Source: Octopus sinensis
Lineage: Eukaryota
Assembly: GCF_006345805.1 (NCBI RefSeq)
Contig: NW_021826997.1
Span: forward strand, 1-11,451
Length of the DNA stretch: 11,451 bases
Direction of reading: 5' to 3'
Below, one piece after another: positions 3,171-11,260 of this stretch; the first letter of the stretch is position 1; the number at the start of each line of letters is the position of its first letter. A program made the position numbers and the translations under genes. The notes under the pieces are model-generated. The model did no database searches. It had not been told where the DNA came from and saw nothing but the letters and a program-made list of their open reading frames with translations.

Positions 3171-3483
3171 ATAATTATATTCTCAAACGCAGGATAATGC
3201 TAATAGTATAGCATGAACAGGATAAACTATTCACCTGTTGCCGAAAACTCTGTCGGCGGCCAGATTACGCGTCTTATAAAGCTAGATGTATATAGCCTAA
3301 ATTTGCAGAAGTATTTGTCGTTCACGCAGTTTAGCTTAATGGTAAAGCAATTAAAGCGTAATCACAGGGGTGTGAGTTGTAGTCACATAGCTGGCCGCCG
3401 ACAGATTTTTCTGCAAATTATGGATATTTCATCCGGTTCACGTTATATCATTAGCATTATCCTGCGTTTCAGAATAAAATTAT
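3171..3483. mobile_element. Foldback / MITE-like element with 93-bp imperfect terminal inverted repeats
   Basis: 3171-3263 aligns without gaps to the reverse complement of 3391-3483 (about 16 mismatches by hand count), with perfect cores AAACGCAGGATAATGCTAAT (3185-3204 / 3450-3469) and TCTGTCGGCGGCCAG (3249-3263 / 3391-3405). No clear target-site duplication. Confidence 0.7.
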
Positions 3484-3580: not shown

Positions 3581-3633
3581 ATGGAGCATGACCTTTCAAC
3601 CGTGACGGGAACATTTAGAGTTGAAGGCTGTGG
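3581..3633 (+). CDS. Internal coding exon C of the same gene
   Basis: Acceptor catccgtcttttgcAG (ends 3580), donor GTAAAC (3634-3639); 53 bp, phase 0 to 2, bridging exons B and D. Translation MEHDLSTVTGTFRVEGC(G). Too short to appear in the ORF track. Confidence 0.75.
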
Positions 3634-3849
3634 GTAAACAATGCTTCTAACACATTTATTCAAATTTATTTGGTTTTGTTCCAAACATTCAATTTTATCG
3701 CATGTATTATAAGCCACAATATTCAACAATGTTGTACTTGTGACTCATAATATACTAATTCATACATTCAATGAAATGTTTAAGTGTTTTATCCATGTTT
3801 TATTATACAAAGGACACACAAACCCATATAAAGATACACAGAGAAACTG

Positions 3850-3883
3850 TATATATACTTGTATATATGTACACATATATATG

Positions 3884-3915
<32 letters not shown>

Positions 3916-3916
3916 C
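3850..3916. repeat. Imperfect (TA)n tract, left flank of the inverted-repeat element
   Basis: Read directly. Confidence 0.9.
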
Positions 3917-4193
3917 ATTTCAACAATTGAGGGTAAAATTAATTAATTATTAATCAATTTCACCAAGTATTCAGTATGTAAAGGGACCATTTTAGGCGAA
4001 TTCAAAATATTACATTATATATAAGGGCTTAGTAAAATAAATTACTTTGCCACATACTGAACTCATTAGAAATAGCAGCTAAAGAAATTTCTTCAGCTAT
4101 TTCTAATACTTAAAGAAGATCTCTCTCAGATAGTGTTTGCCTAAGCCAACTCACAAAGGTATGGGGGAAAAAAACATTAAAAAATCAAGTGCA

Positions 4194-4263
4194 AAGGTTA
4201 TTTGAGAACGTACGTTTCTAGATTAGTCAATTCGACATTTCTTTCGTCAGCTCAGAATTCCTT
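4194..4263 (-). ncRNA. Minimal type I hammerhead ribozyme motif (inverted copy)
   Basis: Exact reverse complement of 4685-4754 inside the inverted arm. Confidence 0.7.
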
Positions 4264-4684
4264 GAATCGGATTTGGGAACACTGAAAGTTAGGAGCATAC
4301 CCTTTCGGCTTCTTATCACTTCCAGAATTCTGCTCGAACTAAAAGTAATTTATTTTACTAAGCCCTTATATATAATGTAATATTTTGAATTCGCCTAAAA
4401 TGGTCCCTTTACATACTGAATACTTGGTGAAATTGATTAATAATTAATTAATTTTACCCTCAATTGTTGAAATTATAATTCATCTCGCTCTGTTAAATGC
4501 TGCGGTTTTCACCGTTAATACATGGTGTTTGTCAATTTTAACCCACGCTGGTGGAAGGGGGAGAGCAGAAATTCTTCGCTTGCATATTCGAATTTGGTAG
4601 CACTTTTAGTTCGAGCAGAATTCTGGAAGTGATAAGAAGCCGAAAGGGTATGCTCCCAACTTTCAGTGTTCCCAAATCCGATTC

Positions 4685-4754
4685 AAGGAATTCTGAGCTG
4701 ACGAAAGAAATGTCGAATTGACTAATCTAGAAACGTACGTTCTCAAATAACCTT
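4685..4754 (+). ncRNA. Minimal type I hammerhead ribozyme motif
   Basis: Stem I TGAG (4694-4697) / CTCA (4742-4745), extendable through ATT/AAT and AAGG/CCTT; core CTGACGA (4698-4704); stem II AGA..GTC-gaatt-GAC..TCT; GAAA (4730-4733); minimal palindromic stem III ACGTACGT; GUU triplet with predicted cleavage after 4741. The first stem II pair is a non-canonical A-A. Confidence 0.7.
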
Positions 4755-4931
4755 TGCACTTGATTTTTTAATGTTTTTCCCCCATACCTTTGTGAGTTGG
4801 CTTAGGCAAACACTATCTGAGAGGATCTTCTTTAAGTATTAGAAATAGCTGAAGAAATTTCTTTAGCTGCTATTTCTAATGAGTTCAGTATGTGGCAAAG
4901 TAATTTATTTTACTAAGCCCTTATATATAAT

Positions 4932-4965
4932 ATATATATATACATATATATATATTTAAATATAC

Positions 4966-5015
<50 letters not shown>

Positions 5016-5060
5016 ATAATATATATAATATATATATATATATAATATATATTATATATA
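4932..5060. repeat. Imperfect (TA)n tract between the inverted-repeat element and the RTE fragment
   Basis: Read directly. Confidence 0.95.
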
Positions 5061-5583
5061 CTGTATGATGCATGTGTTACGAAAGCTATGCTACATGGCA
5101 GTGGAACATGGGTCGTGACTGCTGAGGACATGCGTAAGCTCGTGAGGAACGAAGCCAGTATGCTCCGATGGATGTGTAATGTCAGCCTACCTACTCGACA
5201 GAGCGTTAGTACCTGAGAGAAATGTTGTACCTCAGAAGCATCAGTTGTGTGTGTGCAAGAGAGACGATTGCGCTGGTATGGTCATGTGGCGAGAATGGAT
5301 GAAGATAGGTGTGTGAGAAAGTGCCAATCCCTAGCAGTTGAGGGAACCCGTGGAAGAGGTAGACCCAGGAAAACTTGGGACGAGGTGGTGAAGCACGACT
5401 TCGAACGTTAGGTCTCACCATGGAAATGACTAGAGACCGAGACCTATGGAAGTATGCTGTGCGTTGAGAAGACCGGCAAGACTAGTGAAGCAATACTCCG
5501 TGGCCCCTACCTGGGACGTAGTCAGTCCACCTGTGCATACCTTCCTTCTTGTGACACTTGTGAAGACCTGTTGAGGCAAGTGA

Positions 5584-5632
5584 GAATCGAATCGAATCGA
5601 ATCAAATCAAATCAAATCGAAACAAATCAAAA
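5584..5632 (+). repeat. (AATCG)n/(AATCA)n pentanucleotide microsatellite in the RTE 3' UTR
   Basis: aatcgaatcgaatcgaatcaaatcaaatcaaatcg read directly. Confidence 0.9.
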
Positions 5633-5675
5633 TAGATGAAAATCAATGGAATTTGTATCCTTGTGGACCAGTGCC

Positions 5676-6133
5676 GGTGGCACATAAGAAAAACCATCCG
5701 AACGTGACCGTAGCCAGTACCGCAACGACGGCCTCCGTGCTGAGGGCACGTAACAAACACCATCCGAGCGTGGCCGTCCGCCAGCCTCGTCTGGCACCTG
5801 TGTCGGTGACACATAAGAAAACACCATCCGAGCGTGGCCGTCAGCCAGCCTCGTCTGGCACCTGTGTCGGTGGCACATAAAAAACACCATCCGAGTGTGG
5901 CCGTCTGCCAGCCTCGTCTGGCACCTGTGTCGGTGGCACATAAAAACCACCATCCGAGCGTGGCCGTCAGCCAGCCTCGTCTGGCACCTGTGTCGGTGGC
6001 ACATAAAAAACACCATCCGAGCGTGGCCGTCAGCCAGCTCGTCTGGCACCTGTGTCGGTGGCACATAAAAAACACCATCCGAGCGTGGCCGTTCGCCAGC
6101 CTCGTCTGGCCCCTGTGTCGGTGGCACATAAAA
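5676..6133 (+). repeat. 63-bp GC-rich tandem minisatellite within the RTE 3' UTR
   Basis: catccga anchors at 5695 (degenerate unit), 5761, 5825, 5888, 5951, 6014 and 6076; spacing 62-66 bp; six near-identical units. Confidence 0.95.
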
Positions 6134-6462
6134 TCACCCACTACACTCTCGGAGTGGTTGGCGTTAGGAAGGGCATCCAGCTGTAGAAACACTGCCAGAT
6201 CTGACTGGCCTGGTGCAGCCTTCGGGCTTGCCAGACCCCAGTTGAACCGTCCAACCCATGCTAGCATGGAAAACGGACGCTAAACGATGATGATGATGAT
6301 GATGATACATACGCATTGAGTCGAAACAGAGGCAGCTGAAGAAGGGAATTTTCCTTGTATTGTTTGTCCTGTTTTTCGTTGTTGAAAAAAGTCTGTTTCC
6401 TTTTTGATTTTATGTTTTCGCTTCTCGTTGTGTTCTACGCTTTTTTGTGGTGTCCTGTACTC

Positions 6463-6640
6463 ATATATATATGTATATATACATATAGATGTAGGTATGT
6501 ACATATATGTATGTATGTATGCATATGTTTTATTTATTAAATTGCTGTATATATATGTATATATATATACATACATATACATCACACATATATATACACA
6601 CATATATATACACACATATATATGGGTGTGTATATATATA
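6463..6640. repeat. Degenerate (TA)/(TATG)/(CA) microsatellite
   Basis: Read directly. Confidence 0.9.
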
Positions 6641-6823
6641 AATTGAGTTGGGTATCGGCAATTTGAAACCAACAAGGAAATAATTCACAGTCACTAAGTG
6701 TGAAAAGAGTGCAGTGAGCACCAGTATTATTAGAAATATTAGTCATAGACTCCTTAGCCACAAAAAGACATATGGTCTGTTTGCATTGACAGTGGGGAGA
6801 ACATTCCCCACGGTAAGCCAGAT

Positions 6824-6877
6824 GGATTAGATTAGCATGGTAATTTCTAATAGGAAGTTAATACTCATCAGCAATGC
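6824..6877 (-). ncRNA. Degenerate hammerhead ribozyme-like motif
   Basis: Minus strand: GCATTG-CTGATGA-gtattaacttcctatta-GAAA-TTAccatgcTAA-TC-TAATCC. Intact core boxes, stem III AUUA/UAAU, AUC triplet, stem I AUUG/UAAU; stem II pairs poorly. Confidence 0.4.
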
Positions 6878-7031
6878 TCACTCCATTACGGCTGGTGGAG
6901 GCTAACTCCCGCCTGTCAATATCATTGAGAATGACATAAAAATGAGTGATTGATTTCACAAAATGGCAATGTGAAGATTATAAAATATTGAAGGTAGCTA
7001 ACACACATTTTAAAACCAACCAGGTAATTAT

Positions 7032-7064
<33 letters not shown>

Positions 7065-7073
7065 GTATGTATC

Positions 7074-7475
7074 TCTCTCACTTTTTTCTCTCTTTTACTT
7101 GTTTCAGTCATTTGACTGCGGCCATGCTGGAGCACCACCTTTAATCGAGCAAATCGACTCCGGGACTTATTCTTTGTAAGCCCAGTACTTATTCTATCGG
7201 TCTCTTTTGCCGAACCGCTAAGTGACGGGGAGTAAACACACCAGCAATGCTTGGGAGACAAACACAGACACACAAACACACACACATACACACACACACA
7301 TATATATACATATATACGACAGGCTTCTTTCAGTTTCCGTCTACCAAATCCACTCACAAGGCATTGGTCGGCCCGGAGCTATAGCAGAAGACACTAGCCC
7401 AAGATGCCACGCAGTGGGACTGAACCCGGAACCATGTGGTTGGTTAGCAAGCTACTTACCACACAGCCACTCCTG
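7074..7475 (-). mobile_element. tRNA-derived SINE (octopus-type), near full length
   Basis: Minus strand begins caggagTGGCTGTGTGGtaag (A-box-like) ... GGTTCAGTCCC (B-box-like), has an internal (TA)/(TG) tract and a purine-rich tail; homologous to 10094-10379 and 10836-11260. Confidence 0.9.
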
Positions 7476-7993
7476 TATATGTATAAATACATATATAAAG
7501 TGTATTCAAAGATTTATGCAGGGAGCGAAGACCTTCATGTGCATTTCTTAGTGGACGAATATATTCGTAAGACCAACTTTTAGTCACCCGCTTGTAGTTC
7601 GAGCCTCCTTCACTAATTCTGTTCTCAACCATACTGAATGCGGTTATTTTAGCTATGATGATCCAATCCTGAGCTATATTTGAATATACTGATAGAAAGC
7701 GATGTGAAAGACAGTGGTGATGGTGGTGGAGCGGAAAGTGATGAAAAGTATTGATGGTGATGGCGTCAGAAGTCTGGATGGCGTGTGTATGGCAGATATG
7801 GTGGCGATGGTGGTGGTACTGTTGTTTATCATGAAGCTTTGCAATAAGTTCCGAGTCGACAAATTATATCATTGCTTTGATGAAAATTGTTCATTGCTTG
7901 AGAAATATTCATGTTTCATGAAATTTAATATGTACTCAATGCATGGTGTCATTGTTGGGCCCAAGGATTAACAGGGGAGCTTTTAAACGAATG

Positions 7994-8037
<44 letters not shown>

Positions 8038-8106
8038 TATATATATAATATATATATATCAATGTATATTTCTAGCTAGCTAGCTAGCTACATACATACA
8101 TACATA
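7994..8106. repeat. Compound microsatellite (TA)n-(TAGC)n-(TACA)n just upstream of exon D
   Basis: Read directly. Confidence 0.93.
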
Positions 8107-8141
8107 CCGACATACATGTATGTATTTATTTTTTATTTCAG

Positions 8142-8296
8142 CTCAAACAGAAATAAAATATTTGCTATTTACTGTACAGTATTTAGCGAAATGACTGAAA
8201 GTCAACTGCGGCGCAATATCTCCCAAGTTTTGAACAAATCCCAGGAATTGCTTAACTTAGGAGTTAAGAAAAGCCACATTAAATTCATTGATGAAA
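8142..8296 (+). CDS. Internal coding exon D of the same gene (C-terminal part of SEA-like domain)
   Basis: Acceptor tttattttttatttcAG (ends 8141), donor GTAAGT (8297-8302); 155 bp, phase 2 to 1. Translation (G)SNRNKIFAIYCTVFSEMTESQLRRNISQVLNKSQELLNLGVKKSHIKFIDE. Confidence 0.82.
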
Positions 8297-9351
8297 GTAA
8301 GTATCGTGTTCTCTATTAATTTAATCATCATTACCGTCATAATTAGCTTCATCAATCACCAACCTCTTAGTCGTTGTCGTCATCATCAACCACAGTAGAT
8401 GACACCAAGCACACAGACTCTCTCCCTCTCTCTCTCTCTCTCTCTCACAACAACTATTTATTTACATTTTCTCACAACGCTTGGATAATTTTAAAAAAAA
8501 GCATTTTATTTTGCGCTTTTCGGTTCTTGTCCCTACGGAACTGTTTGTCTTTGCTCAGTTTCTTTTTAATTATACCAATTAACCGAGGGCAAAAATGTCT
8601 TCTTCTAATTTTGTATAGAAGTAGAAGATGCAGACTCTAATGGGCAGAAAAATTCAAACAATTCCAGTACTTGCTTTAATTCAAACAGGAAAACTATTTA
8701 GTGCTGCAAATAATTTTCCTCAGCGAAAATTCATTTCGTACGAAGTGATCAAGTTAATTTTTACATTAGGATCGATAGATACACACACACAGCTCATACG
8801 ATTTAAACAGTGTCTAAGGGATATAAGAGAGGAACAAATCATATCCCATTGCCGAAAAATGATATATTTTCTCTTCGTTTCCATTCATTTCATTTTACCA
8901 TCGCCAAATCAATATAACATCTACCTATTTCTAGCATACATTAGGTTTTGCGCTTCCGGTCAGTATGTCTAAAGAGTGATCAATATATTGACGAAATTCA
9001 ACGCTAGAGGCCGCGAAACAGACAAGCATTCTGAGTAGTCATATCCCGTAACCAGTTATATATTGCTCGAGAAAATATAAAATATATATATACATATGCA
9101 CACATCTCTATTTCTATTTTGTTTATTGTTTTTTAAGAATATATAAGAAAATATATATATAAGAATATATATATATATATATAATCTACAGGATCTCAAG
9201 TAGTTATGCAGTTTCAATCGGCTAAATTTAATTGAACAATACAAAAATTACATCAATTTAAATGCAATGCCATCTTCAGCTGCATAAATAATGAATTAGA
9301 ATTTTAATAAGTAGGACACTTTAATGTAATTTTTCTCAAATATTTGAACAG

Positions 9352-9976: not shown

Positions 9977-10093
9977 AAAGGCAGGTAAAAGCAGACTTCT
10001 CTTGCTATAATTCTAATGAAAAGGCCTGAAAATGTGAAAAGTGCAGAAACTGTGTCCAAAAAGCCTAAATTAAGCGACGCGAGAGAGAAAAGC

Positions 10094-10379
10094 CCCCAGT
10101 ACTTATTCTTTGTAAGCCTAGTATTTATTCTATCGGTCTCTTTTGCCGAACCGCTAAGTTACAGGGTCGTAAACACACAAGCATCGGTTGTCAAGTGATG
10201 TTGGACGGGGGGGGGGGCAAAAACACACACAAACATATACACACATACACACACATAGATATATATACATATACATATATACGACAGGCTTCTTTCAGTC
10301 TCCGTCTACCAAATCCACTCACAAGGTTTTGGTCGGTCCGAGGCTATAGTAGAAGACACTTTCCCAAGGTACCACGCAG
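10094..10379 (-). mobile_element. Internal fragment of the same SINE family (lacks head and tail)
   Basis: Reverse complement aligns to about 10900-11178 of the downstream copy. Confidence 0.9.
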
Positions 10380-10664
10380 GTTCTTCCTGAAATTTCAATT
10401 GAAAGCGATTCTCCTTCCAAACGCTAATATCCCTCTTCCTTGCACACATTGTATCCCTCGTACACGGGGTAATCAAATTAATAAAAACCGCTTTAGATAT
10501 TTCTTTTGCGTTCTATTTTACTGTGCTTTTATTATTGTCATTTTCCTTGTAACTGTAGGCTTTCTGTTTCGAAACCCATAAAATTGGCCATTGGATGGTT
10601 TTGTGTTGCTGGAAAGGAACAATCATATTCTAATACATATGTCTGCATGTGTGGGCATGGTTGC

Positions 10665-10835
<171 letters not shown>

Positions 10836-11260
10836 GCGTAGTAGTGGGTGTGTGGTAAGTAGATTGCTTACGAACCATATGGTCCCGGTTTCAGTCCCAC
10901 TGCGTGGTACCTTGGGCAAGTGTCTTCTGCTATAACCTCAGGCCGACAAAGCCTTGTGAATGGATTTGGTAGACGGAAACGGAAAGAAGCCTGTCGTATA
11001 TATGATATGTATATATACTATGTGTGTGTATGTGCGTATATGTTTGTGTCTGTTTTTATCCCCCCCTCCAACATCGCTTGACAACCGATGCTGGTGTGTT
11101 TACGACCCTGTAACTTATCAGTTCGGCAAAAGAGACCGATAGAATAAATACTAGGCTTACAAAGAATAAGTACTGGGGTCGATTTGCTCGACTAAACGCG
11201 GTGCTCCAGCATGGCCACAGTCAAAGACTGAAACAAATAAAAGAGTAAAAAGTAAAGAGT
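10836..11260 (+). mobile_element. tRNA-derived SINE (octopus-type), near full length
   Basis: gcgtagtagTGGGTGTGTGGtaag ... GTTTCAGTCCC head, shared body (gatttggtagacggaaac, ttcggcaaaagagaccgatagaataa, gctccagcatggcc) and taaaagagtaaaaagtaaagag tail. Confidence 0.9.

Follow-up and report, generated by a model that had tools for sequence, protein, structure and literature searches.

The window (the whole stretch of DNA analysed here, 11,451 nt) contains at 3917-4931 what we read, with a probability of roughly three in four, as the young insertion of an ORF-less 555-bp repeat that has many copies in octopus and bears a hammerhead motif; it lies within (TA)n, is arranged like a Penelope-like element (PLE) and was likely mobilised in trans by an autonomous PLE. 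A non-autonomous PLE is the best reading because the insertion layout is that of PLEs and the hammerhead is Hydra-like. The kind of element is already known (Craig, 2021; Li, 2026), and the octopus 555-bp family is a further member.

Layout of the element and its host gene

The element consists of a direct arm and an inverted, overlapping partial copy (Table 1), and the segment order A-B-A'-C-B'-a' of the original prediction was reproduced with its coordinates. Positions 3917-4048 are the exact reverse complement of 4342-4473 (132/132), 4342-4376 occurs a second time at 4897-4931 at a spacing of 555 nt, and segment C (4474-4601) occurs once within the window. The longer inverted pair, 4014-4346 and 4602-4931, differs by one substitution and two small indels, of 2 nt within a T run and of 1 nt within a GA run. 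A partial-tandem pseudo-LTR and an adjacent inverted 5'-truncated copy are thus both present at the locus, and the predicted Penelope architecture agrees with the published PLE layout. The two ends of the element differ in length by 97 nt. A 12-nt repeat flanks the element (3905-3916, again at 4932-4943), and it is weak as a target-site duplication, since within the right microsatellite an equally good match arises at 16 of 113 offsets.

The segments have a GC content of 23-42%. Segment A contains a 15-bp hairpin (4426-4458) just ahead of the family's 3' end, and indels seen in family contigs are located in its loop region (4436-4438). The element was predicted to be free of coding sequence, which was borne out: when the unit is read as a circle its longest stop-free frame has 62 codons, none of 6 frames examined inside the element gave a Pfam match above cut-off, and an ORF with reverse transcriptase and GIY-YIG domains is absent from it by frame scan, Pfam and protein search.

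Table 1. Features of the element, its target and its host intron (window positions)
Feature	Position	Strand	Basis or remark
Host intron, LRR/adhesion-GPCR-like gene	3634-8140	+	coding matches on either side
Left target microsatellite, degenerate (TA)n	3849-3916		repeat scan
Inverted, 5'-truncated copy, 430 bp (B, then full A, on the - strand)	3917-4346	-	sequence comparison; outer end is the family's visible 3' end
Mirrored hammerhead motif in the inverted arm, with the same sequence as the + copy	about 4203-4254	-	descriptor; core starts at 4250 on the - strand
5-nt overlap (microhomology), head-to-head inversion joint	4342-4346		arm comparison
555-bp unit plus 35 bp	4342-4931	+	direct arm of the element
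Segment A, 3'-terminal portion of the unit; truncated upstream pseudo-LTR at this locus	4342-4473	+	self-comparison, folding
Segment C, 128-bp body, in place of the ORF of an autonomous PLE	4474-4601	+	folding predicts pairing with 4645-4826
Segment B, hammerhead-bearing part of the pseudo-LTR	4602-4896	+	palindromic hairpin at 4837-4881
Type I hammerhead motif	4694-4745	+	descriptor search; family conservation
Stem I, 4 pairs	4694-4697/4742-4745	+	hammerhead parts
Core CUGACGA	4698-4704	+	hammerhead parts
Stem II, long, interrupted, A.A at base	4705-4729	+	hammerhead parts
Core GAAA	4730-4733	+	hammerhead parts
Predicted cut after GUU	4741	+	hammerhead parts
Restart of A over 35 bp; its end is an internal TATATAAT word continuing into the target	4897-4931	+	left end extends 97 nt farther
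Right target microsatellite, (TA)n	4932-5060		repeat scan

A protein search with the host exon at 1311-1493 matched 32 proteins, 31 of them named Octopus, with identities of up to 100% in O. vulgaris and O. sinensis and of 79-80% in O. bimaculoides. Nine of the 32 proteins used as tblastn queries gave coding matches at 1308-1496, 2481-2567, 3581-3634 and 8140-8298. These matches bracket the element, which is therefore intronic in a + strand LRR/adhesion-GPCR-like gene, and judging by the matched proteins the host is an adhesion-GPCR-like gene of the Octopus vulgaris/sinensis group. The cysteine-rich exon (1311-1494) is tandemly repeated within several octopus LRR/adhesion-GPCR-like proteins, and proteins composed mainly of this repeat carry no Pfam label.

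Several other repeats surround the element. The preceding intron holds a MITE-like element (3171-3483) with 93-bp terminal inverted repeats that are 83% complementary. A decayed LINE fragment (5063-5470) adjoins the right (TA)n tract; its Pfam match is to an AT-hook only, and its translation we take to resemble the end of RTE-type ORFs. Farther along lies a GC-rich 63-bp minisatellite (5745-6133; 6.2 copies, 94% matches) within a repeat that ends in (GAT)n. Three related interspersed repeats (about 7085-7475, 10083-10380 and 10819-11225; two on the + and one on the - strand), each with an internal microsatellite, are 83-89% alike and presumably represent a common octopus SINE. A short frame between microsatellites (1819-2031), with no Pfam match above cut-off, resembles, in our view, a remnant LINE ORF.

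A type I hammerhead motif in each arm

Under standard hammerhead numbering and the NUH rule, each arm carries one type I hammerhead motif; the original prediction had called the element hammerhead-bearing. A strictly minimal, stem-III-less type was rejected, since a palindromic stem III is present. The 10-nt palindrome that contains stem III could allow two copies to pair with each other, with a predicted duplex energy of -11.6 kcal/mol. The descriptor matched the window at the two mirrored sites only, one hammerhead per strand. It matched none of 5000 unit shuffles and one of 300 window shuffles, a chance rate that is understated because the descriptor was written after the motif had been seen. 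The Rfam hammerhead models gave no match at E<=1 over the whole window or at E<=10 over 4342-4931, and an Rfam mir-31 match proved to be the palindrome and was discarded. In predicted folding, the active-like structure (-4.7 kcal/mol) lies 4.3 kcal/mol above the local minimum (-9.0 kcal/mol).

Sequencing contigs of the family, described below, support the motif as well. Depth within B peaks at 4722-4759, the 3' half of the hammerhead, in all four runs, and among the variant rows listed there is no substitution between 4703 and 4809. Variation does occur at the free core position 7 (4702), with C>A at 74k of 115k depth in run X1. Two loose ends (nine contigs in X1 and one contig in X17, for which the 5' letters of the window were assumed) carry variants that allow the base of stem II to pair, the change falling on opposite sides in the two. 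Both arms in the window run intact across the predicted cleavage site.

A many-copy family in public contigs

Part of the stretch, at most 0.60 of its words, is contained in 20 of the 23 public runs listed, under four organism codes. None of the listed runs with the stretch is recorded as RNA; X5 and X17 are guessed to be RNA and were left unused for expression. Contigs of four runs were aligned to the unit (4342-4896): 6964 from X1, 536 from X7, 111 from X5 and 52 from X17. They cover 30, 30, 30 and 28 of 30 bins of the unit, respectively. Thousands of contigs over all or nearly all bins establish the unit as a many-copy rather than a single-copy sequence, as had been anticipated, and the tandem arrangement likewise recurs: the head-to-tail joint 4896->4342 was found in all four runs (24, 5, 1 and 1 contigs in X1, X7, X5 and X17). 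Among the contigs listed, beyond which lie 103 loose ends and 7801 pieces, none covers the whole unit or bridges A and C with 31 letters on each side.

In three of the four runs, contigs continue into (TA)n after 4477 (23 in X1, three in X7 and one in X17), and thus the visible 3' end of the family is the end of A, which is also the outer end of the left arm. The 35-bp restart at 4931 is probably not the usual end of the family, which in the contigs lies at the end of A. The family is many-copy and diverse, and its dispersal is inferred from the end that abuts (TA)n. By identity to the unit, 1440 X1 contigs fall at 99% or more, 2907 at 95-99%, 2299 at 90-95% and 318 below 90%. The predicted recency applies to one insertion and not to the family: with arms that differ at three places the window copy is young, and it is the only insertion that looks recent; most family contigs share 90-99% identity with it. 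At 4625 and 4628, and at the mirror sites of the left arm, the letters of both arms are absent from nearly all covering X1 and X7 contigs, so that the source copy belongs to a minor subfamily or the species or individual of the window differs from those of the runs. A>G variants occupy six places in the guessed-RNA runs (X5 and X17) and five in the other two, counts too similar to bear on RNA editing. Matches to an 18-nt motif in JGI metagenomes came to four loci, each just a 20-nt match, and were set aside as chance.

Contigs are about 80 nt long. Summed depth in X1, which is not a copy number, is about as high in C (1.09M) as at the hammerhead (1.23-1.28M), and reaches 585k at 4481, just past A, versus about 2.0M in A. 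Listed contigs cross the valley in C (4448-4564, 4463-4560 and 4470-4554) and the C-B border (4559-4740), which leaves no space for an ORF in those variants. Between 0 and 9% of aligned contigs extend into unlike sequence and, (TA)n aside, the longer loose ends listed are, judged by eye, diverged versions of the unit.

Insertion template and candidate partner

Published PLE insertions combine a partial tandem with an adjacent inverted 5'-truncated copy and unequal ends (available text of Craig, 2021; PMC8557442), and an overlap of 15 bp between inverted and direct pseudo-LTRs is on record (available text of Arkhipova, 2013; PMC3846280). Both arms of the octopus element span the cut site and neither 5' end (4342, 4602) coincides with 4742, which points to a template that had either stayed uncut or been closed again; a linear cut monomer copied without jumping was rejected on the same ground. 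We propose that the GIY-YIG nuclease of a partner element would nick both (TA)n strands, and that each 3'-OH would prime reverse transcription inside an uncut, longer-than-unit RNA, for which A-C-B-A (687 nt) would be enough. The first cDNA would start at the end of A and stop at 4602, the second would start 35 nt into A and run for 590 nt, and the two would be joined via the 5-nt overlap. Both ends of the element lie at TA-like words of the RNA, and pairing between target and RNA may thus choose the start sites. The right end may reflect either a second start site set by such pairing or a later loss of 97 nt. In the accessible part of a study of a Poseidon PLE in vitro, uncut RNA was the main insertion template, and initiation proceeded without homology to the target, contrary to the idea of TA words (Frangieh, 2024). 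The hammerhead would be a weak cutter, assisted by dimerisation or protein, that trims precursor RNA and is dispensable for insertion.

The partner most likely belongs to a (TA)n-targeting, hammerhead-bearing clade, Hydra or Neptune. According to the accessible text of Craig (2021), Naiads target (TA)n and have no canonical hammerhead and Hydra elements have both; for Neptune, a (TA)n-type target bias has been hypothesised. Membership of the Naiad clade is contradicted by the full three-stem hammerhead motif at the locus. The O. vulgaris genome is reported to hold 190 PLE families that make up 6.83% of it, 31 of them recently active, and the words "hammerhead" and "ribozyme" are absent from the available text of that study (Bonar, 2026). 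Comparisons of motifs, of proteins and with Hydra-1_Obim yielded no autonomous partner. Five window motifs had no match in the available supplement of Craig (2021), where wrapped FASTA lines may hide words, nor did window motifs match the available supplement of Bonar (2026). A protein search of the frame at 4542-4718 against longer proteins, a weak search of one frame, gave none among 11 candidates. Hydra-1_Obim itself was rejected as the partner by eye, its 3' end being unlike the unit. Two words of the window (4570-4579, 10 nt, and 4645-4655, 11 nt) recur, by eye, in the first 70 nt of Hydra-1_Obim in opposite order, probably by chance.

RNA fold and alternative explanations

The original prediction left open whether the element is a PLE derivative or a retrozyme, and took its terminal redundancy to fit reverse transcription of a circular or tandem RNA of about 555 nt. 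The first option stands, as a non-autonomous type of PLE; the two-unit definition of a retrozyme fails at the locus. As for the template, the circle found no support, since a 687-nt linear A-C-B-A RNA contains both arms and explains the redundancy equally; a circle is allowed and not required. A true non-LTR retrozyme, in which loci with two hammerheads release a 555-nt monomer that circularises and a PLE enzyme copied the circle here, would be compatible with mobilisation by a PLE, and we consider it possible if unlikely. The closed path A-C-B-A exists in family contigs, and the GC content of the unit fits the figure of below 45% given for retrozymes in the text available to us. The unit folds better than its shuffles, with z -4.39 as a linear RNA and z -4.25 as a circle (-2.83 for the opposite strand). 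In the predicted fold, a helix (4411-4421/4883-4893) spans the tandem B-A joint, stem I of the hammerhead is left free, and pairing between C and B surrounds the hammerhead. Confident + strand pairs are touched by 22 of 39 family variants, and 11 of the 22 keep the pairing against 8.3 expected (P 0.014); on the - strand two of 14 do so against 1.4 expected (P 0.35). Folding scores and variant counts together lend modest support to selection on a + strand RNA fold.

Against the retrozyme, the locus has one hammerhead per strand and could not itself release a monomer, no molecule with two tandem hammerheads was seen, and a linear template suffices. Local palindromes account for much of the folding signal. 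The C-B core by itself scores z -2.07, and among ten control stretches nine lie between -2.2 and +1.1 and one, the MITE-like 3171-3483, reaches -6.67. Pair-breaking variants on the + strand (11 against 15.3 expected) are not significantly depleted (P 0.064). A unit of 555 nt exceeds the 170-400 nt circles described in the accessible text of Cervera and de la Pena (2020; PMC7229834), though it lies inside the 51-972 bp of Li (2026), and eight of the nine dimers tested by Li (2026; bioRxiv 10.64898/2026.07.22.740005) remained uncut, as far as that text is available. Rather speculative is an abundant octopus family of 555-nt hammerhead circular RNAs whose copies would show the complete Penelope scar, with its inversion, partial tandem and (TA)n target, and would begin at TA-like internal words. 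If the circular-RNA reading were true, the locus would be direct structural proof that Penelope-like enzymes copy retrozyme circles, and a sign that (TA)n-targeting clades pick their starts by pairing with the target.

In host pre-mRNA, the two B arms are predicted to pair with each other (329 pairs) and to bury the hammerhead. Inverted intronic insertions of this kind would give long double-stranded RNA, in an animal with heavy RNA editing.

We consider it improbable that an autonomous PLE family with a long 3' UTR or pseudo-LTR left its 5'-truncated end here, the short A-C-B path being a local or minor deletion form. Most PLE insertions are indeed 5'-truncated (accessible texts of Craig, 2021; Li, 2026), contigs break at branch points, and an ORF branch could hide among 103 loose ends beyond those listed; in X17, a 255-letter loose end before 4661 is visible over 30 letters only. 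The depth past A and the contigs across C in three runs, however, point to a common A-C-B path, and few contigs enter unlike sequence. Very improbable is an inversion produced by assembly error or by later DNA fold-back of an ordinary repeat copy: the strand-change joint (4342/4602) is absent among the joints listed in the four runs, the flanks are microsatellites, and assembly trouble is reported at such sites (available text of Craig, 2021), but three differences separate the arms, which also have different end points, the left end falls at the family's own 3' end, the joint has a 5-nt overlap, and the layout is the standard one of PLEs.

The claim of an undescribed cephalopod family is upheld as to its Octopus host, by the host proteins, and as to novelty within the literature searched: outside subscription papers, Repbase and Dfam, no paper on an octopus retrozyme or on the 555-bp unit was found. 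An unnamed Penelope consensus, for example in the O. vulgaris library of 190 PLE families, may already represent the family. Mobilisation of animal retrozymes by PLEs has been argued from co-occurrence and the likeness of pseudo-LTRs (accessible text of Li, 2026), and a many-copy ORF-less unit with a whole Penelope scar is more direct evidence for mobilisation by PLEs. Copies of the family would bear on three points, namely a circular versus a linear tandem template, the origin of the inverted arm and unequal ends, and the role of the hammerhead. As it stands, the octopus repeat is one more transposon family.

Comparison with known systems

The statements on published systems below follow the available portions of the sources cited. 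With EN+ PLE insertions (Arkhipova, 2013; Craig, 2021) the octopus element shares the partial tandem, the overlapping head-to-head inverted truncated copy, unequal ends, a hammerhead in the pseudo-LTR and a microsatellite target. It differs in having 128 bp where those elements have an ORF, and in an end asymmetry of 97 nt versus the published 30-40-nt tail (Craig, 2021). Hydra-clade PLEs, including Hydra-1_Obim of O. bimaculoides, share the (TA)n target, a 4-bp stem I, a 3-4-bp stem III, cleavage after U/A and, in many members, a mismatch at the base of stem II (Craig, 2021, supplement). The likeness is one of hammerhead design and (TA)n target only, the octopus unit being protein-free, and unlike them the unit has a longer interrupted stem II and a hammerhead that lies 190-290 nt from the 3' end. 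Cervera (2014) describes variants with a palindromic helix III, to which the design is also akin.

Metazoan non-LTR retrozymes (Cervera and de la Pena, 2020; Li, Clavereau, Pollet, 2026) resemble the octopus unit in being non-coding, low in GC and self-pairing, and in their type I hammerhead, head-to-tail joints and proposed mobilisation by PLEs. Their definition asks for two or more units in a row, every one of them carrying a complete hammerhead (Li, 2026), an arrangement that the octopus locus does not have. Unlike them, the octopus element has a full PLE insertion scar with inversion, a feature unused as evidence in the available texts of Cervera (2020) and Li (2026), in which cephalopods are unsampled. 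Non-autonomous Chlamys elements such as MRC1 (Craig, 2021) differ in their green algal host, in mostly being without a hammerhead and in having known partners, and they are, like the octopus repeat, ORF-less passengers of PLEs with pseudo-LTRs and head-to-tail insertions.
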